This document shows positions 6,706 through 22,800 of a DNA stretch of 23,515 bases, in pieces. Both the position numbers and the translations under genes were made by a program. Source of the stretch: an uncultured archaeon (lineage in GTDB: Archaea > Asgardarchaeota > Heimdallarchaeia > Heimdallarchaeales > Heimdallarchaeaceae); assembly GCA_964534625.1 (NCBI GenBank), contig CAZHRF010000016.1, positions 1 to 23,515 on the forward strand, written 5' to 3'. Within the stretch, counting starts at the first letter, position 1. Each line of letters opens with the position of its first letter. Under the pieces are notes generated by a model. That model was not told the origin of the DNA, ran no database searches, and was given only the letters and a program-made list of their open reading frames with translations.

Positions 6706-7656
6706 TCATTTTTTGTCTTTTACAAGAGAAAAAATACGATCCCAAACTAATTCTGTAGTTTTATCGATTGTTTGCCTAAAGTTATTTGTTTCAATAGTGG
6801 GAATATCATACTTGACAGCCTCTTCTAATAGAAAAGATTGAATAGTACGAATATCTTCAAAAGATTCAGTATATCTTTCAGCTTGTCTATTTTTTACTGA
6901 CGCACCGCGTTTATGAAACCTTTTCATGTGTTCATCTTTATCTTCCAAATATAAGAATATCATTAATACGTGAGGATTAGAAATAATGGAAGGGTCAAGT
7001 ATGTTTGGCGATAAGTGCACTCCTTCAATTATGGAATTATCTCTGGAATTTAACGCTACTTGAATGACAGCTTCTACTCCAACAGTAATGTGCCTACTCT
7101 GTTCTTCATAGCCAACAATAGATTTGCGTAAAATAGGTGAGATTTGTGGCTTAAGATACTTATAAGCTTCATAACTGGAACAATGAAGTTCAGGTACGAG
7201 CTTGAAAGATATAGTTTGACGTAATATCTCTCTAATCATGTCAGTACCTATGATGTTTGATATTTCCAGTTTTACACAAAGATCTGTTGCAATTGTACTT
7301 TTACCTATACCAGGAACACCAGCTAGAAGAATTATTATTGGTTTATACACTTCTTCTCGAATGGAAATGCGATATCTTTCAGCAATTTTGCTATCAACTT
7401 TAGATACCTTATTGAGAGTAAGTTGAACAAGATCATTTTTGGAAATAGATTGATTTAACTCGAATATTTCATCCTCAATCTCTTTTGCTATATCATAAGC
7501 TTTTTTGTCGTCTAATCCAAGTGCATATAGAGAAGTAGCCAATATTCCCCGGGAAAAATACTTTGTACGTCCTAGGTTATCTTTGATTTTGGTAAGTTTA
7601 TCGATTATTTCAAGCTCTCTATCGCTATCCATAAGTGTAAATGATTCAATAGCCAT
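6706..7656 (-). CDS. pgk2: 2-phosphoglycerate kinase family protein (ATP-cone plus P-loop kinase)
   Basis: FSRGILATSL ATP-cone, Walker A GVPGIGKST, IGTDMIREILR, PELHCSSYEA, IIEGVHL, EHMKRFHKR. Confidence 0.8.
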   Translation of the reverse strand: MAIESFTLMDSDRELEIIDKLTKIKDNLGRTKYFSRGILATSLYALGLDDKKAYDIAKEIEDEIFELNQSISKNDLVQLTLNKVSKVDSKIAERYRISIREEVYKPIIILLAGVPGIGKSTIATDLCVKLEISNIIGTDMIREILRQTISFKLVPELHCSSYEAYKYLKPQISPILRKSIVGYEEQSRHITVGVEAVIQVALNSRDNSIIEGVHLSPNILDPSIISNPHVLMIFLYLEDKDEHMKRFHKRGASVKNRQAERYTESFEDIRTIQSFLLEEAVKYDIPTIETNNFRQTIDKTTELVWDRIFSLVKDKK

Positions 7657-7715
7657 AAAAAGATTTACGTAACTTTTATGAACAATAAAATGTAAGATAA
7701 ATTTACTGAAAAAAG

Positions 7716-8600
7716 ATGGAAGTCGAAAAAAAAATTATTATAGAAGGAAAAACTGATCGTTTATTCTCAAGGGGAATATTGGCCACAAAGTTAGAGTTCA
7801 TTGGATTTTCTTTCACTAATGCATACGAATTTTCAATAAGAGTAAGAAATGAACTACTTAAACTAGATACTTCCATCATAAAAAAGGAACAACTAGATTC
7901 TATAGTACATAGATTGTTATTGGATGAATATTCAAAGGAACTTGCAGAAACATATATTCTAATGGAAAGGTGGAGAAAAAAGCGTACTCCTATACATATA
8001 TTAATAGCTGGAGCCATAGGTGTGGGAAAAAGTACTCTGGCAAGAAAAGTGGCAGGAGAGTTGGGAATACAACATATAATTGGAACCGATATAATTAGAG
8101 GAGTGTTGAAACAGACTCTATCCCCTGAAATAAGACCAGAATTGCATTCAAAGTCATATTTTGCGTATAAATATTTAAGAGAAATTTATAGCACTAGGTA
8201 TGATGATACAATAATCGGATTTGAAAATCATGCAAAATATGTCAATGTTGGAGTAGATGCAGTTTTATCTAGATCTGAAACAGAATCTATATCAATTGTG
8301 ATATTTGGAGAACATTTGTTACCTTCCTTCTTTGATAGTAGGGCGGGTCAAAAGGGCACTCTTGTTTATGTCACACTAAAACTAGCTAACGAAGAAATAC
8401 ACAAGGAAAATCTTTATTCTCAATACTCAAGAGATCGAGCTATTCTTATGAAAAATTTTGCTAGAATAAGAACAATTCATGATTATTTAATGAATGAAAC
8501 CGCCAAAAGAAGAATGAATATCATAGAAGCTGATCCCCAAGAAAAACCAATTAAAAGGTTACGGGAAATCATTGTAAAACATATTAAAACCAATTACTGA
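7716..8600 (+). CDS. Second, divergent 2-phosphoglycerate kinase-like paralogue
   Basis: FSRGILATKL, Walker A GAIGVGKST, IGTDIIRGVL, PELHSKSYFAY. IEGVH is replaced by IFGEH, and the H..RF..R segment by IHKENLYSQ. Confidence 0.8.
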   Translation: MEVEKKIIIEGKTDRLFSRGILATKLEFIGFSFTNAYEFSIRVRNELLKLDTSIIKKEQLDSIVHRLLLDEYSKELAETYILMERWRKKRTPIHILIAGAIGVGKSTLARKVAGELGIQHIIGTDIIRGVLKQTLSPEIRPELHSKSYFAYKYLREIYSTRYDDTIIGFENHAKYVNVGVDAVLSRSETESISIVIFGEHLLPSFFDSRAGQKGTLVYVTLKLANEEIHKENLYSQYSRDRAILMKNFARIRTIHDYLMNETAKRRMNIIEADPQEKPIKRLREIIVKHIKTNY

Positions 8601-9113: not shown

Positions 9114-9995
9114 TCATAACTCTTCTTCTTCATTTATTTTATTGTTTTGCTTTGATCCCTCTGATTTTTTACTTATTTTTTCTAATTCTTCTTCCACATC
9201 TGTTCTGCATATTGGACATATATTTTTCTTAATTGAAATTATGGATCCACATGAAGGGCAAACCCTAGGTTCATCTTGCTCCTCATTCCAATCATAGGCT
9301 CCTTCAAAACTACCCATCCAACTTTGTTCTTTCCATTTTGAATATATTATTTCTCCATCTTCATCAAACAATTCAGAGAGGTCTATGCTTTCTTTTGCAG
9401 TAAGTTTTCGGTCTACAATTTTGTGATATAATAACATTATAAAGGGAAAAGTTATGATATGACCGATAAATAGAATTAATAGGAGATTGGATACCCAGAG
9501 TGATGAAGATAAAAACACACCAGATAGAATCATTAAAAAGAACATGCTAAAAGTCAAGGTAAAAATTTCAGCTGGGATGAATACTATTATACTATATAAA
9601 ACTAGTTTGAAAAAATCATTACTCAGAAAGTGTATTTTTTGCCAATTTGTAAAAGGTTTAATGTCTAACCAAAGTTCTCTGATTAATTCTTTAAATTCTT
9701 TAAAACTAATATTAGCAATAAATAATGAGAGAAATATGTTTATACTGGACAATAGAAGAAATAAAAGTAAACCAAACCAAGGATGTGAAGTGACGTATTC
9801 AAGTAGTGCAATAAAAAAGTTTTTTTCCACTTTAGAGTATAGGTCTTCTAATGATTTGGCTGTCATAAGTAGAATAATACTAAAAATTTCTTGAGTTAAG
9901 AATAGAACAAGAAAGTTCCCTAAAGCATAATTCCTTTTTTTAGTTGCCTTCTCAAATTTATCCCAAAAATATATGGTTTGTAAAATATTAATCAT
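9114..9995 (-). CDS. Membrane protein (about 4 TM) with C-terminal zinc ribbon
   Basis: Four hydrophobic segments, then CPSCG-x8-CPIC and a charged tail. Confidence 0.75.
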   Translation of the reverse strand: MINILQTIYFWDKFEKATKKRNYALGNFLVLFLTQEIFSIILLMTAKSLEDLYSKVEKNFFIALLEYVTSHPWFGLLLFLLLSSINIFLSLFIANISFKEFKELIRELWLDIKPFTNWQKIHFLSNDFFKLVLYSIIVFIPAEIFTLTFSMFFLMILSGVFLSSSLWVSNLLLILFIGHIITFPFIMLLYHKIVDRKLTAKESIDLSELFDEDGEIIYSKWKEQSWMGSFEGAYDWNEEQDEPRVCPSCGSIISIKKNICPICRTDVEEELEKISKKSEGSKQNNKINEEEEL

Positions 9996-10086: not shown

Positions 10087-11085
10087 ATGTTATCATTAGG
10101 AATAGAATGTTCAGCTGATAAACTCGGTATTGGAATAATTAATGAAAATGGACATATTCTTGCTAACACTAGACGCACTTACAAACCACCAACGGGCAGT
10201 GGTATTCACCCAAGAGAAGCTTCAGAGTTTCATGCATCAAATATGTCAAACACAATTCAAGCTTGTTTTGATGAAGGAAATGTTACACCAGATAATTTAG
10301 ACCTAGTCTCTTTTACAAAAGGTCCTGGTCTGGGTCCTTGTTTGAGAGTGGGTGCTGTAACAGCAAGAACTTTGGCTTTAAAGTTTAACATACCTCTTAT
10401 TGGTGTCAACCATCCAATAGCACATGTAGAAATAGGGCGTCTTGTGGGTAATCTTGATGATCCTGTTGTTTTATATGTATCTGGTGGAAATACACAAATT
10501 ATTGCATTCTCTAATGGGCGATATCGTGTTTTTGGAGAAACTTTGGACATACCTGTAGGAAACTGTTTGGATGTTTTTGGGAGGAATGCTGGTTTAAGTG
10601 ATAAAAACATGCCAATGGGTAGAGTAATTGAGCTAAAAGCACTAAAAGGCAATCAATATGTTCCTATTCCCTATGTGATTAAAGGGATGGATGTCTCTTT
10701 TTCAGGTATCCTTACACATGTTACTCGTCTATTGGAACAAGAAAAAAACACGATTTACGATCTAGCTTTTAGTCTACAAGAAACGGCATTCTCTATGCTA
10801 GTAGAAGTCACAGAACGAGCTTTAGCCCACACAAAAAAAGAGGAAATTTTAGTATGTGGAGGTGTCGCAGCAAATGTAAGATTGAAAGAAATGTTGAATA
10901 TAATGGCTGAGTCTCACAATGCTGTTTTTAGGGGGTTAAAAAGCGATTTAGCTATTGATAACGGGGTTATGATAGCTTGGTTGGGTTTGCAAATGTTTAA
11001 TTCTGGAACTAGAATGGATATACAAGATACAATAGTAGACCAACATTTTCGTCCAGAAGATGTTGAGGTTACATGGAGAACATAG
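10087..11085 (+). CDS. kae1: tRNA N6-adenosine threonylcarbamoyltransferase Kae1 (KEOPS)
   Basis: LGIECSA, GIHPREA, GPGLGPCL, NHPIAHVEIG, LYVSGGNTQ, FGETLDI, GMDVSFSG, LQETAFSMLVEVTERA, GGVAAN, DNGVMIA. Confidence 0.96.
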   Translation: MLSLGIECSADKLGIGIINENGHILANTRRTYKPPTGSGIHPREASEFHASNMSNTIQACFDEGNVTPDNLDLVSFTKGPGLGPCLRVGAVTARTLALKFNIPLIGVNHPIAHVEIGRLVGNLDDPVVLYVSGGNTQIIAFSNGRYRVFGETLDIPVGNCLDVFGRNAGLSDKNMPMGRVIELKALKGNQYVPIPYVIKGMDVSFSGILTHVTRLLEQEKNTIYDLAFSLQETAFSMLVEVTERALAHTKKEEILVCGGVAANVRLKEMLNIMAESHNAVFRGLKSDLAIDNGVMIAWLGLQMFNSGTRMDIQDTIVDQHFRPEDVEVTWRT

Positions 11086-11087
11086 TA

Positions 11088-12389
11088 ATGGTTGACAAAA
11101 AGAGAGCAGTTATCTTTGAATGTAACAAAAATAATTTTTATAGTTTCGCATCAATAATTGCCATAGTAGATAAGGATCCAAATTTGGAACCTTTAGATAA
11201 GAAAATTATAGATCAGGTTACTATATCTAAACTTAGGCGGAATCTGAAAAAATATTCAAAAATTATTGTTGCCTCTTCATTTCGAACTGCGCAAATAGGT
11301 GATGTCTACACTAATATGTCTAAATTTTATAATACCTTGTCCAAAGACGAATTAAAACGCGTACTATTCGTTGCTGGAGGAAGCCATGCTACTGGAGACC
11401 CAGAAAGTACACTAAAATTAGGATATGATTATGCATTTATTGGAGAGGGAGAATATGCTTTTCCCGTATTTTTAAGAAATTTTCTGGAAGGATATGATAT
11501 AAAAAGCACTCCTAATGTGGCATTTCTTGAGCAAAACAATGTAGTTCGTAAACCTTTGGCACCATTAATTGATCTTGATAGTTATCCCATTATTTCAAAG
11601 ACAAGAAAACTTTTTCCCCCTTTAGAAATAACAAGAGGCTGCGTATTTGGATGCAAATTCTGTCAAGTTCCAAGCATGTTTAATAAAAAGATAAGACATA
11701 GAAGTCCTGAAATTATTTTTGAAATAATTAAGTGGATGGCAAAAAACAACCTATATGATATACGATTTATTACTCCAAATTCGTTTGGTTACCTCTCTGA
11801 TCATCCTACTAAAGTTAATATTGACGCAATAGAATATCTATTGAAAACGATAAAGCAAACTGCCGGTATAAGGGATGTTTATTATGGGACGTTTCCTGGT
11901 GAGGTCAGACCTGAAACAGTATCTGAAGAATTATTAAAAAGAGTTAAACCATACATAGCCAATAGACGAATAGCAATTGGTCTACAGACAGGAAGCGAAA
12001 AAGTACTTAAAGACATTGCTAGAGGTCACACGCTAAAGGAAGGGATTAAAGCTATTACCAGTTTAAGAGAAAATGGCTTTCGACCAGTTGTTGATTTCAT
12101 ATTTGGATTACCTACTGCTACAATTGAGGATGAAATGCAATCAATAGATGTAATAAAGCAGTTAGTTAAAAAAGGAGATAAGGTAAGGTTACATACCTTT
12201 ATGCCTTTACCAGGTACCATATATAAAAACGAAAAATATTGTACAGTTCCAAGAAAAATAAGACAAGAATTAGGACATATTGCTAATTCTGGTAAACTAG
12301 AAGGTGGTTGGACACATCAAATAACTTATGCAGAAAAAACTTGGAAGCTAATACGTAAAATTAAATCCTCTCCTGTTATTACTCGATAA
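11088..12389 (+). CDS. B12-binding domain / radical SAM protein (resembles TIGR04013, MJ1487 family)
   Basis: N-terminal cobalamin-binding signature VAGGSHATGDPE...DYAFIGEGE; EITRGCVFGCKFCQ (CxxxCxxC); IRFITPNSFGY, YGTFPGEVRPE, VDFIFGLP, HTFMPLPGT. ATG 11088 lies 2 nt after the kae1 stop; the track start is 11073. Confidence 0.88.
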   Translation: MVDKKRAVIFECNKNNFYSFASIIAIVDKDPNLEPLDKKIIDQVTISKLRRNLKKYSKIIVASSFRTAQIGDVYTNMSKFYNTLSKDELKRVLFVAGGSHATGDPESTLKLGYDYAFIGEGEYAFPVFLRNFLEGYDIKSTPNVAFLEQNNVVRKPLAPLIDLDSYPIISKTRKLFPPLEITRGCVFGCKFCQVPSMFNKKIRHRSPEIIFEIIKWMAKNNLYDIRFITPNSFGYLSDHPTKVNIDAIEYLLKTIKQTAGIRDVYYGTFPGEVRPETVSEELLKRVKPYIANRRIAIGLQTGSEKVLKDIARGHTLKEGIKAITSLRENGFRPVVDFIFGLPTATIEDEMQSIDVIKQLVKKGDKVRLHTFMPLPGTIYKNEKYCTVPRKIRQELGHIANSGKLEGGWTHQITYAEKTWKLIRKIKSSPVITR

Positions 12390-13053
12390 AATATTTTTGT
12401 TTAATCTCTTCTTTTGAAAGATGCCTTGCTCTTGCTTCTACTGTAATTGCACGTTTAAATATCGTCTTGGCTTTAGGATTAAGTGCTTGATATCCTTGCT
12501 GAAAGGACCTAAAATAGTCATTGGCATGACTTGTATGTGTGCTTACTAGACATTTTTTCATAAGTAAAAGATCTACTGCTTTATCTTCGATTGCTCGTGA
12601 TATTTTACCTAATCCAAAATCAATAAAATATAAGTTGTCTTTTTGTAAAATAATGTTACTTGTGGTAAGATCACCGTGAATAACATTGTTTTTATGGAGA
12701 ATACCTATATTTTCGCCAATTCTCTTCATAGTAAGATTTTTTTTGGTGCTGTTTTCAGTTGATTCCAGATATGATTTAATAGTCTTGCCTGTAATTTCTT
12801 CCATAACTATTGTAGTATTTTCTAAATCTATTACAAAAACAATTGGTGTTTTAACACCTGCTTTTTTGGCATCTATCAATAATTTTGCTTCTACAGCTGT
12901 TCGTGATTTTCTCAATTTTTCATCAATTTCTGGAATTCTATAATCCTTTTTTACTCTAATTTTTTTTAGTACATTAAATCCGAAAAAAACATCTTTTATT
13001 AATATGGCTTCTGCACCCCATTTTTTTGCTTTAGATACTTGCTTGGAATTCAT
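12379..13053 (-). CDS. bud32: KEOPS kinase/ATPase Bud32
   Basis: GAEA, KIRVKKDYR...D..LR..RT..EA, IHGDLTTSN, IDFGL, EDKAVDL. Its 3' end overlaps the radical SAM gene by 11 bp. Confidence 0.95.
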   Translation of the reverse strand: MNSKQVSKAKKWGAEAILIKDVFFGFNVLKKIRVKKDYRIPEIDEKLRKSRTAVEAKLLIDAKKAGVKTPIVFVIDLENTTIVMEEITGKTIKSYLESTENSTKKNLTMKRIGENIGILHKNNVIHGDLTTSNIILQKDNLYFIDFGLGKISRAIEDKAVDLLLMKKCLVSTHTSHANDYFRSFQQGYQALNPKAKTIFKRAITVEARARHLSKEEIKQKYFIE

Positions 13054-13057
13054 GTTA

Positions 13058-14098
13058 TCACTTGGTCTTTTTCTTAAGATTTTTTAATGCCGGAATAATA
13101 TCATCTCCCTTTGGTTCATCCAACTTATTACCTTTGTTATCTCTTAGGATGCCTTGTTCTTCAGTTACCTCTCCAATTATAGTATTGGGTATTTGACACG
13201 AATCGAGATATTTCTTTATACTTTCAACCTTATCTGATTTTGTTGAGACAATTAATGCACCTGATGAAATTAGGTAATAAGGATTGAAATCAAGCCATTT
13301 AGCTAGTTTTTTAGTCAAATCCAATACAGGCGGTTCATTGTAGAGTTTTATACCATATTTTGTATATTTTATCAGTTCATATAATCCTCCATAAAGACCA
13401 CCTTCTGTGACATCATGAAAGAGGGCGGGTTTAAACTTTTTATTTAAATCTAATACTATTTCCATAACACTAATTTTTGATCCTATCTCTTTGGCTTGTT
13501 TGATCTCTTTTTTATCAAGAATGTCATTAATGATTTCTTTTGAAGAATCAACAATTATCCCAATTCCTTCACTTCCTATGTTTCCAATTACTAATATCTT
13601 ATGTCCTAACTGAAGCATATTCGGGACTAAGTATTGTTCGGGTACAAAACCAATCATATGACCAGAAACGATGGGGGTATTAACAACAGAAGAAATCTCT
13701 GTGTGCCCTCCTAATACGGAAATTCCGAATTCTTGACATTTCTCGCTTATTTGTTTTTGTATTTCTACTATATCAGAATATTGGTAATTAGGTGGTACGA
13801 TAATTGTAGCTAAAAACCCATAAGGAACACCGCCTGTACATACTATGTCATTTGAATTTACAATAACAGCATATGTACCTGGTTCCGCTGTGGGAAAAGT
13901 AATGGGGTCTGATTTTTCAACAAGATGAATATTGTCTTGTGCATTATATACATTCTTAACTACTTTAATTGCTTCTTTTATGTTAATCACTGCAGCATCA
14001 GATCCCACTGACCCATTCTTAATTATTCCTGGATTGTCGGATCCCTTTAATTTTAATAAGGCTTTTAGTTGTTTAAGTGGTAATTTGCCCTCTTGCAT
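13058..14098 (-). CDS. AIR synthase-related (PurM/HypE/ThiL-fold) ATP-utilising protein
   Basis: GKLP, GSDAAV, SDPITF, NSNDI, GGHTE, HDVTEGGL, ISSGAL; ends 4 nt upstream of bud32 on the same strand. Confidence 0.85.
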   Translation of the reverse strand: MQEGKLPLKQLKALLKLKGSDNPGIIKNGSVGSDAAVINIKEAIKVVKNVYNAQDNIHLVEKSDPITFPTAEPGTYAVIVNSNDIVCTGGVPYGFLATIIVPPNYQYSDIVEIQKQISEKCQEFGISVLGGHTEISSVVNTPIVSGHMIGFVPEQYLVPNMLQLGHKILVIGNIGSEGIGIIVDSSKEIINDILDKKEIKQAKEIGSKISVMEIVLDLNKKFKPALFHDVTEGGLYGGLYELIKYTKYGIKLYNEPPVLDLTKKLAKWLDFNPYYLISSGALIVSTKSDKVESIKKYLDSCQIPNTIIGEVTEEQGILRDNKGNKLDEPKGDDIIPALKNLKKKTK

Positions 14099-14326
14099 TA
14101 ATTGGGTGATTGAATAAATATAAAAAAAGGTTGTTATTTACCATTCTTGAATTATATGTAAAAAACAAAAAGTAGTTATCCATTTGTGGTATTTTCCCAA
14201 ATCTATTTACTAGTACTAAAAAAGGTAATACAATAAATGCAATCTTTGTATAATTTTTTTGAAAATATATATATAACTGTGTTTACAATTGTAATACAAG
14301 ATATTAACTTAAAGGAGACGATATGT

Positions 14327-15088
14327 GTGCCTAGACCAGCTTCATTTATTGGTGGTGCTTTAACTGCCATAGGAATTTTTGGTATTATAGTAGATATAAT
14401 TCAACTTACAGATAATTATTGGTGGCTTTTATTCTATCTTGGGATAGGTTTGTTAGGAGGCCTTGCTACAGGTTCAGTCACAGCAACACATAAAACTGAA
14501 GAACAAAATGCTTATTTGACAACATCAGGTTTTATGGTAGCTAGTTTGATATTTTTAACCGTTTTTTTGATAATCTGGGAAAAAGATTTTTATGCTATTA
14601 ATGCAGTTATCGACGGTCTTTTAGTGATTATAATTGCTGCTTTATCTTCCTTTTTAACATTTATTGGTACTGTTATGATGTCAATACCTGAACAAAGTAG
14701 AAGAAATAAATCGAATGTTCAACCAGCATCATTTATCGGAAGTTTCTTCACAGCAGGAGGTCTTTTTACTATATCATTAATTACTGTACGTTATACTGAT
14801 GGCTATTGGTGGTTTCTCTTTTTTATAGCGATAGGAATAATTGGCGGATTTTCTGCAGGTTCTGTTAGCGCTGTATTCCGAGAGGAACAAAAAAATGCTT
14901 ACTTAACCTTTACTGGGTTTATGTTAGCTGCCCTTATACTTCTTACATTATTTTTAGCTATATGGGCTAATGATGGTCCACTCACAGTAGTTTTTGATAG
15001 TAAAAGTGTTCCTGTATTGATCGCAGGAGGATCGGGACTAGCTATCTTCATAGGAACAGCTATGATGACAATAAGAAAAGGGAGATAG
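14327..15088 (+). CDS. Internally duplicated multi-pass membrane protein (2 x ~4 TM)
   Basis: Two ~125-aa repeats (PASFIG...TD.YWW.LF...IG..GG...GSV.A....E..NAYLT..GFM.A.LI.LT.FL.IW..D) offset by 129 codons. GTG 14327 follows an AAGGAG SD at 14312-14317; the track start is 14237. Confidence 0.8.
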   Translation: MPRPASFIGGALTAIGIFGIIVDIIQLTDNYWWLLFYLGIGLLGGLATGSVTATHKTEEQNAYLTTSGFMVASLIFLTVFLIIWEKDFYAINAVIDGLLVIIIAALSSFLTFIGTVMMSIPEQSRRNKSNVQPASFIGSFFTAGGLFTISLITVRYTDGYWWFLFFIAIGIIGGFSAGSVSAVFREEQKNAYLTFTGFMLAALILLTLFLAIWANDGPLTVVFDSKSVPVLIAGGSGLAIFIGTAMMTIRKGR

Positions 15089-15238
15089 ATATTAAATATT
15101 ATTTTAATATCCCTTTTAGCATTTTTTTTATTTTCATCATCAATTATATTTATCTCCAGAGAGAGCAAAAAGTTTTTTTATCTTCTAATCTTTTTTCACT
15201 AGGTAAAAGTTATAAAAGTGAAAAAAGGATAGGTAATT

Positions 15239-16411
15239 ATGAGTGAAAAAAGATACTTTCATCCAGGTCAATTTTTTAAATTAGAGTCTTTGATTTCCAC
15301 AGTTCTCGGATTAGGGGTAATCTTTGTTACAGAATATCTCTTGCCTTCTATGGATATTAATACTACATTATATGATTTTATTCCAGAATTAATAACACCA
15401 ACATTATTTACTCTAACATTAACTGTTATTCTTCTGGCTTCAACCAATGCAAAAAATATTATCGCATCGCTTCTGCTTGGAATTAGTGCAAGTCTTATGT
15501 TCTATAATCCAAGTTATATGATAGACGAGTTAACATCTTTAGATGTTGGCTGGGGTGCAGTTCTAATAATGTATGTTACATTTGCTGTTTTTGCTGGTTT
15601 CTTTGCATGCCAAAAAATGACAGGAAAAAACGGATTAAGAACCATTGGTGTTGTTTTTGGTGCTCAAGGTCTTATAGGTGCAGGAGCGGGTTTATTCCTG
15701 TTCTTAAATGAATCCTATAGACCCATATGGAATAATACTGATATTGACATAGCCATCGGTGATTTAACATTTGCTGAACTTACAGGTACATTTCCATTAA
15801 TGAGTACAATAATGTTGTCAATCTCTCTCATCTATTTACTGGTTTTTGTATTTGTACTGGCACGGATAAATTATACAATATCTACTGATAGCAAAAAATT
15901 TGAAATAATAGGACAAATCATCATATTTTTAGGATTAGCTGGTGGATTAATTGCATGTATATTCCTAGGCAAAGCAATAAACCAAGATACAGTTCAAGAT
16001 ACCATAGGTGCTAGAGATTTGGCATTTTTAAATAATGTATTCACAAAATCATATGAGGGTAACTTAAGGTTATTAGAACTATTCAGTGTTTTTTATATAC
16101 TCCCAATTGTTGGGTTCATCGTTGGGGTGGGTCTCTTTTTAATCATCCTACAGCGTGCAGAAGGAACCACAGAAGACTTTAGTTTTAATCAAGAAGGCGG
16201 ATTTCTAATCACAACCGCTCCTGCTATAATGATAACATTTGCATTTAGCTATACATGGTATGTTATGGGAGCATTTGATTTTTACCTGAAAATGGAAACA
16301 TGGTATTTCTTATTTACTGAATATACGATATTAGTACTAGGAAACTTTATCCTTGCTTTCTTGTTATTTAAAATAGTCAGCTTGATAAAATCAATAGTTA
16401 AGAAAGAGTAA
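15239..16411 (+). CDS. Hypothetical multi-pass membrane protein (~10 TM)
   Basis: 390-aa ORF of alternating hydrophobic segments; AGGT SD-like sequence upstream; no family recognised. Confidence 0.75.
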   Translation: MSEKRYFHPGQFFKLESLISTVLGLGVIFVTEYLLPSMDINTTLYDFIPELITPTLFTLTLTVILLASTNAKNIIASLLLGISASLMFYNPSYMIDELTSLDVGWGAVLIMYVTFAVFAGFFACQKMTGKNGLRTIGVVFGAQGLIGAGAGLFLFLNESYRPIWNNTDIDIAIGDLTFAELTGTFPLMSTIMLSISLIYLLVFVFVLARINYTISTDSKKFEIIGQIIIFLGLAGGLIACIFLGKAINQDTVQDTIGARDLAFLNNVFTKSYEGNLRLLELFSVFYILPIVGFIVGVGLFLIILQRAEGTTEDFSFNQEGGFLITTAPAIMITFAFSYTWYVMGAFDFYLKMETWYFLFTEYTILVLGNFILAFLLFKIVSLIKSIVKKE

Positions 16412-16478
16412 AAATAGGCTCCTTATTTCCCTTTTTTTTATTTTTGTTACTAAACTTAATAGTTACTGTGGTATTTTT

Positions 16479-17702
16479 TTATCCTTCTATTTTAACATTC
16501 TCTACTTCTTTACTGAGCTGATTCAATAATTTTTCTTTCAATTTAGAATTTAATCCAAACAAATGAGCTCGCCCTTTTTTCCCCTTAATCACTACAACGT
16601 TTTTATCTCTCAATCTTTTCAAAAAACTTTTAGTTCCCATATATTTGCTTCTATATTCTGCAGTGGATAGTTCTCCATAAAGATAATGAGTAATTTCTTT
16701 AGCTGTTGCATCGCCGTGTAATAAAAATTCAGCTACTTGTCTCTCTCTATTGGGAAAGTTATTTAATGCTTGTTGAATAAGAAATCTATCATAGTCCTCT
16801 CTTCCTGCTGTACTGGAAGATCTTGAGAACATTTCGTTTACAATCATTATCTCTTTTTGTTCTATGTTTTTTACATCTTGATTTTGTATATAGGAATGTG
16901 CATCAGCTAAAATAGATATTAACACCCATGGATTACCATTTGAGAAAATCCAAGCCGTTTCTATTGCTTTTTTTGATATAAATTTCGATACATCAAAATT
17001 TGTCATGTTCATTCCATAACTCAATCTTTTTTTGATTATTGTAAATGCGTCATTCAAAGATAACTCTGGTATTCTGAAATAATAACTAAAATTGTTATAA
17101 CCACCCTCATTAATCGCCTCAAAACAGCCATTTAACTGATGAGATTTGCAACTTACAACCACAGATAAATGTTTTTTCAATAATTTTAATAGCTTTGTTG
17201 AATCCACGACAATTTTTTGGAGGGATTCATTAAAGTTATCTATAAATATTACGATTAAGGAATTCGTATCTTCAACATAATTCTTTAATTCAACAATTAT
17301 TTGCTCTTTGGATGTATAATGTTTTCCAAGTACATCTTCAGAAATCTTTTGCATGTAGTTAGTTAAACTGTAATGATCAAACATATTGGGCGAAAAATAC
17401 AAGACAAAGATTTTTTTGTACCCTCCACCATATTTCCATAATACCTCTTCTATACCCTCTCTTAAGATATTAATAAGGAAGGATTTTCCGGATTTAAAAT
17501 CACCTAGTATGGCAGATATTGTCTTTCCTTCACTTAAGACATCGATTAATCTTGCAATTTTTTCATGTATCCCTTCTGGTGGTACATATAAATCTGGAAT
17601 GTAATCCATCATCCACGGGTCTCTTAAAAATTCTCTACTTTTAATATCTGTTTTAATATCGATATATTCTGAGATATTGAAAATTTTTTCCATTAAGCCC
17701 AT
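16479..17702 (-). CDS. P-loop AAA+/STAND-like ATPase with C-terminal winged HTH (Cdc6/Orc1- or ExeA-like architecture)
   Basis: Walker A GDFKSGKS, Walker B-like IVIFIDN, helical lid with SNGNP, C-terminal HTH-like region (NRERQVAEFL...ATAKEI...FLKRLRDKNVV...GRAHLFGL). Confidence 0.7.
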   Translation of the reverse strand: MGLMEKIFNISEYIDIKTDIKSREFLRDPWMMDYIPDLYVPPEGIHEKIARLIDVLSEGKTISAILGDFKSGKSFLINILREGIEEVLWKYGGGYKKIFVLYFSPNMFDHYSLTNYMQKISEDVLGKHYTSKEQIIVELKNYVEDTNSLIVIFIDNFNESLQKIVVDSTKLLKLLKKHLSVVVSCKSHQLNGCFEAINEGGYNNFSYYFRIPELSLNDAFTIIKKRLSYGMNMTNFDVSKFISKKAIETAWIFSNGNPWVLISILADAHSYIQNQDVKNIEQKEIMIVNEMFSRSSSTAGREDYDRFLIQQALNNFPNRERQVAEFLLHGDATAKEITHYLYGELSTAEYRSKYMGTKSFLKRLRDKNVVVIKGKKGRAHLFGLNSKLKEKLLNQLSKEVENVKIEG

Positions 17703-19843: not shown

Positions 19844-20742
19844 TGATTAACGGAAAACTAGGGGCTCTTTCTATTGGAGATAATTATCAATGTTTGATTG
19901 TTGGTGTAGTAAACATTTCTGATGCTTCTTTTTATAGTGGTTCAATTGCTTCTACCAAAAAAGAGATTGAAGAACAAACGCGTAAAATGATTGAGCAAGG
20001 GGCTAAATGTATAGATATTGGTGCTCAATCAACACGACCGATTCAAATATATGGGGGAGAAGGAAGAGTGGATGAACCAACTGAAGAGGAAATGATTAAG
20101 TCCGCATTAGATGTGGTTTTAGATATAACTAGTAGTTATCCTGAAGTAGAAGTTTCTATCGATACAATGCGTTCTAATGTAGCAAGAGTATCATTAAATA
20201 GAGGTATTAAAATAATTAATGATATCTCTGGATTAAAAAAAGATCCATTAATGGCTGATTGTATTGGTGATTTTGGTGCTTCAGTTGTACTTATGGCTGC
20301 TAAAAAAGAACCTGGTGATGTCTATAGATTAAGAGATATAACGACGGAGCTTCAAAAAAGTGTCAATATGGCTGAAAAAGCTTCTATAGCCCCAGAAAAA
20401 ATTACAATTGATCCGGGTATCGGTAGTTGGGAAGCTAGGGATTATTGCCATGATTATAATATAATTAAACACCTTAAGCATTTTAGAATACTAGAAAAAC
20501 CAGTTTATGTGGGAATAAGCAGAAAGACATCTATTGGTAAAATATTAAATGATGCACCCCCTGCTGAAAGATTGTATGGAAGTATTGGAGCTACCATTGT
20601 CAGTGTAATGAATGGTGTTCATGTTGTAAGAACACATGATGTTAAACCAACCCTAGATGCAGTTAGGGTGGCTGAAACTATAATTAACTGGGATAATGAA
20701 GGAGACTTAACTAAAAAAGTGAATGATAAACCACGAAATTAA
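19843..20742 (+). CDS. folP: Dihydropteroate synthase
   Basis: GVVN..SF, DIGAQSTRP, SIDT, INDISG, DPGIG, GISRK, RTHDV; GGAGGT SD at 19831-19836. Confidence 0.9.
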   Translation: MINGKLGALSIGDNYQCLIVGVVNISDASFYSGSIASTKKEIEEQTRKMIEQGAKCIDIGAQSTRPIQIYGGEGRVDEPTEEEMIKSALDVVLDITSSYPEVEVSIDTMRSNVARVSLNRGIKIINDISGLKKDPLMADCIGDFGASVVLMAAKKEPGDVYRLRDITTELQKSVNMAEKASIAPEKITIDPGIGSWEARDYCHDYNIIKHLKHFRILEKPVYVGISRKTSIGKILNDAPPAERLYGSIGATIVSVMNGVHVVRTHDVKPTLDAVRVAETIINWDNEGDLTKKVNDKPRN

Positions 20743-21576
20743 GATGATTACAACAGATAGAATATTTAATATGCTGTATAAAAGCGCTGTTTCTTTGTCA
20801 TATACTATTTTAATTTTATCTAAAATATTTTCTAATTTATTATCGATTGAAACTAAAAATTCTTTTTCTTCGTTTGTTTCAATGGTTTTTTCTTGTGATT
20901 GTTGTAATACGTCAATAAAGCCATGTAGAAGATTTTCATCTGATTCATCTATCTTCTGATGACTGAAACCTTGTAATTTTTTATGTAATATTGCCACTTG
21001 TTCGTTTGACAACTGTGGGATATTCCATCTGATTGTTTTATTAGATCCCATAAATGAAGATATGAAAGTGCTTTGATCATCAATAAAAACATCAAAGTCT
21101 ACAGCTTGATAGTCAATATCATTTATCATTCTAAAAAATTGTAATTCTAAATCATTTTTGTCCATAGTGGTATAATATCTTGAAGGATCAACAACAAGGG
21201 CAACTGCTTTTTGATAAAGATTTTGATAAACCCGTTGTGTTCCTTTATCAGTGCCACTAAGAAAACACCCATAACCAGGATGGCTATGTATCCACCCTAC
21301 AATGGTTTCATTGTCTCTCCCCCTCTTTTGAAGATCCTCAACAATTTGTATAAGCGCATTATCATCCATTACAACAAAGGTCGTAGTTTGTTTTTGTTTT
21401 CCTGTATCAAAATCGGTAATGATAAGTCTCTCTAAATCATCTTCATAGCCAATTAATACTCCTGCTGATTCTGTTGTTCTATCCACTTGATCAACAGCTA
21501 AGAACTTTGCTAAAGCAGTTGTGGATATCATAACCTCTCTTGTTTTTTTCATATCTATAGAATCATTGATGCTCAT
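20707..21576 (-). CDS. MPN+/JAMM metalloprotease (Rpn11-like) with helical linker and C-terminal transmembrane anchor
   Basis: E36 (ESAGVLIG) and GWIHSHPGYGCFLSGTD (H97, H99, S107, D110), ALVVDP; hydrophobic end ALLYSILNILSVVIILISWFIIHFFS. Overlaps the folP 3' end by 36 bp. Confidence 0.88.
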   Translation of the reverse strand: MSINDSIDMKKTREVMISTTALAKFLAVDQVDRTTESAGVLIGYEDDLERLIITDFDTGKQKQTTTFVVMDDNALIQIVEDLQKRGRDNETIVGWIHSHPGYGCFLSGTDKGTQRVYQNLYQKAVALVVDPSRYYTTMDKNDLELQFFRMINDIDYQAVDFDVFIDDQSTFISSFMGSNKTIRWNIPQLSNEQVAILHKKLQGFSHQKIDESDENLLHGFIDVLQQSQEKTIETNEEKEFLVSIDNKLENILDKIKIVYDKETALLYSILNILSVVIILISWFIIHFFS

Positions 21577-21594: not shown

Positions 21595-22800
21595 TTAAGA
21601 TTCATTCATTAACTCAGTAAAAAAAGGTTTTTCGATTAGAAATTTATATGTTAATTCTCTTAATAATACTAAATCAGGATGTTTTGGAGAAACATTCAAG
21701 TTTGTAATCTTGTCGAGATAATCCATCATTCCCCATAAGCCAAAATAATAGTCAATAGGAAAACCTTTGGGATACAATTCATCCAATGGAGGACAATTTA
21801 TCTCCCGTAAGTGGACATTATAGCCATTTAAAAATTGTTGTACGTCGCTAATAGTGTTAAGAAGTGATCTGTTCATTCTATATTCAAGAAAGACCTGTCT
21901 CCCAAAGAAAGTAGCAATATCTTCAAATCTGTCGTAACTACCTTCTAACCAAAAAGTGGGGTCAATTAGGGCTATGGTGATTATTTCATTGTTAGGTGTC
22001 ACACGGAGCATTAAATTACTCTGATGATAATCACCAAAACTATCGCATCCTCCTTGTGAAACTACTGACATGTCTTGTAGAACCTTTACAGATTCCATGA
22101 TAGGCTTTTCTTCTTTAGTACCACCAAAAACTGCAAGAACTAAACGCCTAAACATTTCTTCATAAACTTCTGTCATAACATTCCGTGGTCTCCCTCCATG
22201 AATAATAGCTAAAATGTAACCCGCCCAAAAACTTTTATTTTCTACAGTATTATTATCTTCATAATTTTGACCTGTTATGCCTTCATAGATAATATATGGT
22301 TGTTTATTTTGTGCTATTTTCTCATTTTTTAGATTAACATAAACATATCTTGGTATTTGAACTATTGACCTTGATGCAAATTTTTTTTCAAGCAGTGCTG
22401 TATTCTTTATCTCTGTTACAATATCCTCTCTATCTTGAACATATTTAATTGCTACTTTGCTTATATGCTCGTCATATTCGGATGAGTAAAATATATCAGT
22501 AACATATACTTCTCCAAATCTTCCTGTCCTTTTAACGTAAGAAATATCATTTATTGTAATATCTTGTACATCTTTACCTGTTTTTTTTCTTGCCTCATCC
22601 ACTAAATAATATTTAATAGATGAAGTTATTTCAAACATTGTATTTTTGTTAATAGCACTCATTACAGATAGTACTTCTTTTTTATTATTAAATTTTAAGT
22701 TAGTAAAACAACTCTCTAACCCAATCGTCCCTCTGGTATGGGTTAGACGTTGTATAATTGTGTTTAAAGGACTTTTTTTAAGAATTTCAACTAATCGCAA
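21595..22800 (-). CDS. Protein kinase-like fold phosphotransferase (APH/choline kinase-like)
   Basis: GRFGEVY Gly loop, VAIK, helix-C Glu (TEIKN), YEGITG, LAIIH, catalytic loop FGDYHQSN, ALIDP, EDIA. Start uncertain (TTG 22800 or a later Met). Confidence 0.72.
   Translation of the reverse strand: MRLVEILKKSPLNTIIQRLTHTRGTIGLESCFTNLKFNNKKEVLSVMSAINKNTMFEITSSIKYYLVDEARKKTGKDVQDITINDISYVKRTGRFGEVYVTDIFYSSEYDEHISKVAIKYVQDREDIVTEIKNTALLEKKFASRSIVQIPRYVYVNLKNEKIAQNKQPYIIYEGITGQNYEDNNTVENKSFWAGYILAIIHGGRPRNVMTEVYEEMFRRLVLAVFGGTKEEKPIMESVKVLQDMSVVSQGGCDSFGDYHQSNLMLRVTPNNEIITIALIDPTFWLEGSYDRFEDIATFFGRQVFLEYRMNRSLLNTISDVQQFLNGYNVHLREINCPPLDELYPKGFPIDYYFGLWGMMDYLDKITNLNVSPKHPDLVLLRELTYKFLIEKPFFTELMNES

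Follow-up and report, generated by a model that had tools for sequence, protein, structure and literature searches.

The closest described systems to the protein analyzed here include cobalamin-dependent radical SAM methyltransferases and enzymes that act on adenosine 37 of tRNA. Among the former, MgmA (QCMT; TIGR04014, PDB 9CCB) is an sp3 C-methyltransferase of a macromolecule, built from a B12-binding domain and a radical SAM barrel and tied to MCR, while RlmX, which methylates C5' of the D2449 ribose in E. coli 23S rRNA, shows that a cobalamin radical SAM enzyme can methylate an sp3 carbon of RNA (PMC13602947). MtaB/e-MtaB and MiaB modify A37 derivatives further, with MtaB acting on both t6A and hn6A, and TrmO also makes t6A heavier by 14 Da on selected tRNAs, by N6 methylation and polar chemistry. 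For hn6A itself, which was reportedly first described in 1992, the prevailing view is that the t6A machinery takes free hydroxynorvaline from an unspecified source; neither an enzyme nor a source of hydroxynorvaline was found in the literature searched, including papers from 2020, 2023 and 2026. MJ1487 of M. jannaschii (Q58882) and TM0182 of T. maritima (N-domain, PDB 4Q37) belong to the TIGR04013 (B12_SAM_MJ_1487) family, a hypothetical equivalog in NCBIfam as of June 2026. The 4Q37 entry has been filed under 'other or unknown transformations' (PMC12931638), and our literature search returned no functional study of MJ1487 or TM0182 and no demonstrated substrate, in agreement with an initial sequence-only reading that had called the family uncharacterized.

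In the window, the whole 23,515-nucleotide stretch of DNA analyzed, which comes from an Asgard genome of the Heimdallarchaeia, a member of this family lies between the two catalytic KEOPS genes. Unfused kae1 (10087–11085, plus strand; 332 aa; TIGR03722, 447.6 bits versus a cut-off of 375; PF00814) encodes the catalytic KEOPS subunit (t6A transferase) and is present as one copy in the genome. Its TAG ends at 11085 and the ATG of the radical SAM gene (11088–12389, plus strand; 433 aa) stands at 11088, confirming the 2-nt gap noted previously; an alternative in-frame ATG at 11073 would make the radical SAM start overlap kae1 by 13 nt. The 3' end of the gene overlaps that of convergent bud32 (12379–13053, minus strand; KEOPS kinase/ATPase; TIGR03724, 212.6 bits) by 11 bp (12379–12389), again as first read. 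An AIR-synthase-related (PurM/HypE/ThiL-like) gene (13058–14098, minus strand; PF00586/PF02769, below every equivalog cut-off) lies 4 nt upstream of bud32 in a conserved block that is syntenic across the Heimdallarchaeia family. The block also includes a gene divergent from kae1 (9114–9995, minus strand), whose product is hydrophobic, carries CxxC...CxxC near its C terminus and has no match in Pfam or NCBIfam, and which keeps its position beside kae1 in relatives.

Across 30 loci of this family, the spacing from kae1 to the radical SAM gene ranges from about −4 to +13 nt, and co-transcription of the two genes in this archaeal family is probable. The radical SAM and bud32 genes of Ca. Heimdallarchaeum are convergent and separated by 5–8 nt, with no overlap. 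To describe the gene as 'locked' between KEOPS genes by the overlap is thus an overstatement, the overlap being dispensable. The kae1/radical SAM/bud32 sandwich is inherited synteny of one Heimdallarchaeia family and not a TIGR04013-wide rule. A sigma-70 promoter and terminator scan of the locus gave chance-level results with a model unsuited to archaea, and a plasmid search returned a single match, to a chromosome-sized record.

The radical SAM protein scores 406.8 bits against TIGR04013 (curated cut-off 251; model positions 1–382), bearing out the proposed MJ1487-like assignment, and a tree places it with every named family member, apart from MgmA (SH-aLRT 99); Methanococcus carries a separate subclade. 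The B12-binding domain inferred earlier is recovered as a Rossmann-type core (residues 66–127; 11283–11468, plus strand) by PF02310 at a marginal 32.6 bits versus a cut-off of 32.1 (E 7.8e-8), and this core matches 4Q37. PF04055 covers residues 180–352 and includes the CxxxCxxC cluster motif (C185, C189, C192; 11640–11663, plus strand), which is intact as claimed: its cysteines are invariant in both alignments and are the sole conserved cysteines among 71 aligned homologues. The predicted structure (pLDDT 95) has MgmA, a protein of comparable length, as its top fold match (9CCB; E 3.5e-22, TM 0.67–0.70), with further matches to CysS, TokK and TsrM. Domain layout, cluster motif and fold suggest a class B cobalamin-dependent radical SAM methyltransferase, for which cobalamin binding is predicted from the marginal Pfam score.

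The known enzymes can nevertheless be distinguished from this protein. Its score against TIGR04014 is 113.9 bits (cut-off 360), and TIGR04013 is frequent in organisms without MCR, unlike MCR-bound MgmA. The earlier exclusion of MtaB and MiaB also stands, as UPF0004 and TRAM are unmatched, the auxiliary-cluster cysteines of MtaB/MiaB/RimO are missing, methylthiotransferase models score far under cut-off (TIGR00089, 73 versus 251), and an e-MtaB distinct from this protein is encoded on contig C3 of the genome (TIGR01578, 373 bits versus 314.7). RlmX is set apart by family name and target, and its home organism, E. coli, lacks TIGR04013; TrmO is an unrelated protein. No RNA-binding domain (TRAM, THUMP, PUA) is recognizable in the radical SAM protein, and TIGR04013 homologues are on the basic side, with a median pI of 8.9, and share six arginines that are almost invariant. 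A weak search found no fusion partners or fused longer forms; a 1129-codon open frame in a myxobacterial genome proved to be a GC-rich open stretch ahead of a normal start.

The distribution of the family was then compared with that of hn6A. TIGR04013 exceeded its cut-off in 3 of 14 control genomes, those of T. maritima, M. jannaschii and M. acetivorans, each of which is hn6A-positive (PMC6313347, PMC10702137), and it also occurs in T. commune, T. kodakarensis (BAD85601), P. furiosus and M. maripaludis (CAF29603), likewise hn6A-positive (PMC6313347, PMC11323500, PMC7668247 supplement). In total, 7/7 organisms with literature-documented hn6A or ms2hn6A carry the family, a tally that leaves out M. 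kandleri, S. hydrogenophila and M. burtonii and is drawn from a small set of related positives, nearly all of them anaerobic, with few true negatives surveyed for hn6A. Members were also found in P. islandicum, M. vannielii and M. tindarius. These three are said to have been hn6A-positive in the work of Reddy in 1992 and, counted separately, add 3/3 carriers.

Conversely, TIGR04013 is absent from the 11 other control genomes, including Haloferax and Sulfolobus. S. acidocaldarius lacks the family and its published position-37 list has t6A only; the remaining controls we take to be hn6A-negative. The bacterial hn6A exceptions named in the literature are Thermotoga maritima and Thermodesulfobacterium commune, and the family is patchy within their respective groups (66/131 and 28/61). 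The complete genomes of Methanocaldococcus vulcanius, M. indicus and Methanofervidicoccus A16 lack it and represent natural losses. The TIGR04013 protein is the sole radical SAM protein with a PF02310 match in T. kodakarensis and P. islandicum, and the family is the only PF02310-bearing radical SAM family common to five positive genomes. It occurs as one copy over cut-off in this genome and in almost all positive genomes, in 143 of 201 Asgard genomes sampled, and also in Thermococcales, many methanogens, myxobacteria and some actinomycetes.

Gene neighbourhoods elsewhere contribute less. Proximity to t6A genes is not unique to this genome, yet at least 74 TIGR04013 gene contexts have, for the most part, unrelated neighbours. 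In Pseudothermotoga, tsaD lies at +2; in Thermoproteaceae, kae1 is 0.7–3.5 kb away and never directly adjacent; and in one further case bud32 is at 3.3 kb. The Pseudothermotoga and Thermoproteaceae links lie in housekeeping regions, and tsaE, found once at about 7 kb, was treated as a chance occurrence. Other neighbours include taw1 at +1 in Thorarchaeia, trmJ at −1/−2 in another Heimdallarchaeia family, ttuA at −1 in an Anaerolineae genome, MetRS and aRF1. Poisson estimates, using a neighbour panel chosen partly after the fact, gave p 0.04–0.08 for kae1/tsaD proximity and p 0.05–0.13 for neighbouring tRNA-modification genes, and enrichment outside the Heimdallarchaeia family is therefore borderline. 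No sua5 or threonine biosynthesis gene was linked in any locus tested; a PLP enzyme downstream in one Thermodesulfobacteriales genome, considered as a threonine synthase, resembles TrpB instead. A wyosine role, suggested by the taw1 neighbour, was rejected since family-bearing bacteria lack wyosine and the wyosine steps already have enzymes.

Together, these data make it reasonably likely that the TIGR04013 family synthesizes hn6A, at whichever substrate stage, a case that rests mainly on the phyletic profile and extends beyond one neighbourhood. The earlier proposal of this protein as the hn6A-forming methylase is supported in part, and the protein stands as a candidate: the profile favours it, but the sandwich is a single inherited arrangement and enrichment in other neighbourhoods is borderline. 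Every documented hn6A organism that was checked carries the family, KEOPS/TsaD linkage extends beyond this genome, and no unrelated substrate came to light in the literature searched, such that no refuting condition open to computation arose. Our main reading, to which we assign a probability of roughly 0.5 (0.52), is that the enzyme is a cobalamin radical SAM C-methyltransferase that turns t6A37 into hn6A37 on some of the ANN-decoding tRNAs. In class B enzymes such as Fom3, TokK, CysS and MgmA, a first SAM yields the 5'-deoxyadenosyl radical, which takes hydrogen from an unactivated carbon, and a second SAM recharges methylcobalamin, the methyl donor. In the proposed route, KEOPS would first form t6A, and the radical SAM enzyme would then act on the threonyl terminal methyl to give a 3-hydroxynorvaline group (+14 Da), after which e-MtaB could add ms2 to form ms2hn6A; more speculatively, a second round of methylation might produce methyl-hn6A. 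In a machine-read table for M. maripaludis, hn6A is on Ile, Met and Asn tRNAs and t6A on UUU/UCU tRNAs, which favours on-tRNA methylation over a free-threonine route.

The non-t6A RNA and translation neighbours (taw1, trmJ, ttuA, MetRS, aRF1), along with the action of RlmX on rRNA, would fit methylation of some other tRNA or rRNA nucleoside, leaving hn6A to another enzyme such as the orphan radical SAM-HhH (TM1601-like) family, which contains a motif for nucleic-acid binding and is found in seven genomes linked to hn6A. We consider this unlikely, as neither the complete T. commune genome (one protein query) nor this genome yielded an HhH family member, and no other nucleoside in want of an explanation is known to us to follow a TIGR04013-like distribution. 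About as doubtful is methylation of an RNA-unrelated protein or small metabolite, in the manner of MgmA on the MCR glutamine; MgmA is the closest relative by sequence and fold and the neighbours are mostly random housekeeping genes, but the weak search found no conserved partner gene, and the co-occurrence with hn6A would go unexplained.

It is rather improbable that the enzyme acts before tRNA, on threonine, a threonine precursor or TC-AMP, with Sua5/KEOPS or TsaC/TsaD installing the hydroxynorvalyl group. This route predicts an identical phyletic profile, close linkage to kae1 would be in keeping with the passing on of a short-lived intermediate, and the lack of a recognized RNA-binding domain also speaks for it. 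Against it, a shared pool poorly explains the sorting of hn6A and t6A among tRNA species within one cell, free hydroxynorvaline, a threonine analogue, would risk mistranslation, and the linkage to threonine biosynthesis or sua5 genes is missing. In favour of the route, TsaC/TsaC2 with TsaD yield hn6A in vitro when given hydroxynorvaline (PMC7430679), and ATP turnover by P. abyssi Sua5 is seen with hydroxynorvaline (PMC3561968); the approximately fourfold preference of T. maritima TsaC2 for threonine (PMC7430679) counts instead for methylation on the tRNA.

We give still less weight to methylation of a lipid or isoprenoid, with kae1 adjacency an accident of gene order. Ether lipids are made by archaea, Thermotoga, Thermodesulfobacterium and myxobacteria, in Methanosarcinales and some Methanomicrobiales the gene follows UbiD and AcnX of the archaeal mevalonate pathway, and the cobalamin radical SAM lipid methylases HpnP and HpnR are known (PMC12931638). 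However, only one lineage shows the mevalonate context, the groups make lipids with no chemical relation to one another, the protein itself is basic and soluble, and Haloferax and Sulfolobus lack the family. Finally, a BzaE-like role in completing 5,6-dimethylbenzimidazole for cobamides (the MjCyc assignment of MJ1487) is very improbable despite the 29% identity with BzaE given in PMC11742838 and one Thermodesulfovibrio locus with a convergent CobA/BtuR gene, because no locus examined has a bza cluster, that paper's sister assignment of MJ0865 as BzaD conflicts with NCBIfam (MCR glutamine C-methyltransferase), and the ThiC-family count, one each in T. kodakarensis, T. maritima, T. commune and P. 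islandicum and zero in this genome, leaves no spare BzaF/BzaAB.

As a single-copy family represented in three hn6A-positive archaea that are amenable to genetics, TIGR04013 is a directly testable candidate. If on-tRNA methylation of t6A is correct, hn6A would be a post-KEOPS hypermodification in which an amino-acid side chain is extended on the tRNA, possibly iteratively, and a function would be named for a family of thousands of members. Cobalamin radical chemistry would enter tRNA modification, tying B12 supply to decoding. By the same reasoning, hn6A would be predicted in most Asgard archaea, Thermococcales, Aeropyrum pernix, Pyrolobus fumarii and many methanogens and, unexpectedly, in myxobacteria, including Myxococcus, and some actinomycetes.

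The arrangement in the window was confirmed: kae1 (10087-11085, plus strand) is followed after 2 nt by a 433-aa radical SAM ORF (11088-12389, plus strand), which overlaps the convergent bud32 (12379-13053, minus strand) by 11 bp. The flanking genes passed the archaeal Kae1 and Bud32 models, and the MJ1487-like identity proposed by the sequence-only reading held in the HMM check (TIGR04013, 406.8 bits against a cut-off of 251), which by profile match assigns the gene to an already known, uncharacterised family. Both radical SAM and B12-binding domains were recovered, the latter as a marginal match. The gene is not a methylthiotransferase, as had been argued against MtaB/MiaB: its only conserved cysteines are the three cluster cysteines, TRAM is lacking, and a true e-MtaB is encoded on another contig of the genome. 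Its confident AlphaFold model (pLDDT 95) matched MgmA best, followed by CysS, MiaB, TokK and TsrM; the gene is not MgmA.

The nearest relatives, Ca. Heimdallarchaeum aukensis among them, carry the label Ca. Heimdallarchaeota. All fetched loci from the genome's own family keep the order kae1, radical SAM gene, bud32 (reverse) and AIR-synthase-like gene (reverse), with a kae1-to-radical SAM spacing of about -4 to +13 nt. At the other end the extent of overlap with bud32 is variable, and Ca. Heimdallarchaeum has a short gap instead. Because the gene lies elsewhere in other Asgard families, we counted this order as one event. The AIR-synthase-related gene (13058-14098), 4 nt from bud32 and conserved with the block, fell under every named cut-off, and a hydrophobic unannotated protein with a zinc-ribbon-like tail (9114-9995), divergent from kae1, is also kept across the family. 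The window further holds two divergent 2-phosphoglycerate-kinase-like paralogues (6706-8600; ATP cone plus kinase) whose head-to-head order is kept in relatives, a JAB/MPN-domain protein of the Rpn11-like deubiquitinase type, a eukaryotic-signature kind (20707-21576), convergent with a pterin-binding gene, and four ORFs of 283-407 aa (14237-17702 and 21595-22800) with no Pfam match except one weak AAA.

The proposal that this enzyme forms hn6A from t6A-tRNA or a threonine precursor was partly supported, and was strengthened mainly by the phyletic profile. We identified named orthologues in T. commune DSM 2178, P. furiosus, T. kodakarensis, M. tindarius, P. islandicum, M. vannielii, M. maripaludis and M. 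igneus; P. islandicum, M. vannielii and M. tindarius reportedly contain hn6A or ms2hn6A (Reddy, 1992). Either nucleoside is documented in T. commune (PMC6313347), T. kodakarensis (PMC11323500), P. furiosus and M. maripaludis (supplement, PMC7668247). Exactly 3 of 14 fixed control genomes scored above the cut-off, T. maritima, M. jannaschii and M. acetivorans, each with hn6A (PMC6313347, PMC10702137). The family was present in all documented positives examined, a sample of few, related and mostly anaerobic organisms that leaves out three reported positives. No member was found by the control-genome profile search in S. acidocaldarius, whose modification table lists t6A only, GGU tRNA included.

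Distribution inside the larger groups is patchy: members occur in 66/131 Thermotogota, 28/61 Thermodesulfobacteriales, 32/62 Thermoproteales, 23/40 Methanococci, 91/201 Halobacteriota and 87/91 Thermococcales, and the product of group shares is roughly 0.03 (by hand; incomplete genomes lower the figure). Only 1 of 61 genomes in a Thermoplasmatota order rich in radical SAM candidates carries the family, which therefore does not simply mark archaea with abundant radical SAM genes. It is also the sole PF02310-matching radical SAM common to five hn6A-positive genomes, although divergent cobalamin domains escape PF02310. Single-contig genomes of M. vulcanius M7 (G1053), M. indicus (G1039) and Methanofervidicoccus A16 (G1068) lack a member, and the members from Methanocaldococcus and from Methanococcus fall in separate subclades, which suggests that in the Methanococci the gene was lost and replaced through transfer. 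The gene is kept in 29/61 Myxococcia genomes and some actinomycetes, which are aerobes (L491-L510; Microbispora L097/L520); we know of no hn6A report from either group.

One competitor is an orphan radical SAM family that lacks an NCBIfam name and bears a helix-hairpin-helix motif at its C terminus (T. maritima, L480:1213-2868; also T. kodakarensis, P. islandicum, Methanococci and Methanosarcinales); identity across Thermotoga and many archaea is 39-46%. It is common to seven hn6A-linked genomes, but a single protein query did not recover it from T. commune, nor was it found in the window genome. It is itself a candidate for a separate nucleic-acid-modifying enzyme.

Most neighbours of TIGR04013 genes, in a set of 367 loci covering at least 74 contexts, are unrelated housekeeping genes. 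Pseudothermotoga and six further Thermotogota genomes carry radical SAM-clpX-tsaD on one strand; in Pyrobaculum, kae1 lies 0.7-1.1 kb downstream on the opposite strand, and a local inversion relates this layout to that of Thermoproteus-type genomes, where kae1 shares the gene's strand and lies about 3.3 kb upstream of it. Elsewhere, one Asgard genome has bud32 at 3.3 kb, and in Thorarchaeia taw1 directly follows the radical SAM gene. In another Heimdallarchaeia family trmJ sits one or two positions ahead of the gene, and in an Anaerolineae genome ttuA is 2 nt upstream of it; these branches lie apart on the family tree. Rough Poisson tails, for a panel partly picked after seeing matches, were 0.04-0.08 for kae1/tsaD and, counting tRNA-modification genes among about 61 same-strand neighbours, 0.05-0.13. 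These neighbourhoods give weak to moderate support to an RNA role. A rival role on lipid draws on the Methanosarcinales, where the gene follows mevalonate-pathway genes; a run of UbiD, AcnX large and small subunits, M50 peptidase and then the TIGR04013 gene is conserved there (L074, L087, L092).

3-Hydroxynorvaline is threonine with one carbon added on its terminal methyl, an unactivated carbon. Class B radical SAM enzymes methylate such carbons (PMC12931638), and the TIGR04013 enzyme would methylate the terminal methyl of the threonyl group, converting t6A to hn6A. The t6A machinery installs supplied hydroxynorvaline, whose origin is stated as unknown in the literature (PMC7430679, PMC3561968, PMC10702137). 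Action on tRNA is favoured because TsaC2 of T. maritima has an approximately fourfold preference for threonine (PMC7430679) and because M. maripaludis bears hn6A on Ile, Met and Asn tRNAs while t6A stays on UUU and UCU tRNAs (from a noisy, machine-read table in PMC7668247). RlmX provides a precedent for a cobalamin radical SAM enzyme working on RNA (PMC13602947). No RNA-binding domain was found in TIGR04013 proteins; they are basic, and R183, R203, R205, R226, R274 and R312 are near-invariant in the homologue alignment, features that are compatible with RNA binding without proving it. The only published assignment we found, MJ1487 as BzaE on similarity (MjCyc; PMC11742838), fits poorly, there being no spare ThiC-like genes.

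We infer the substrate, cobalamin binding and co-transcription with kae1, and put the probability that the TIGR04013 family makes hn6A at about 0.6; that it does so on tRNA is marginally better than an even bet, and on a precursor improbable. A literature search that covered few subscription journals returned no paper connecting TIGR04013 with hn6A, and earlier work is possible. How hn6A is formed, a question dating from 1992, could be tested by deleting a single gene in a genetically tractable archaeon.
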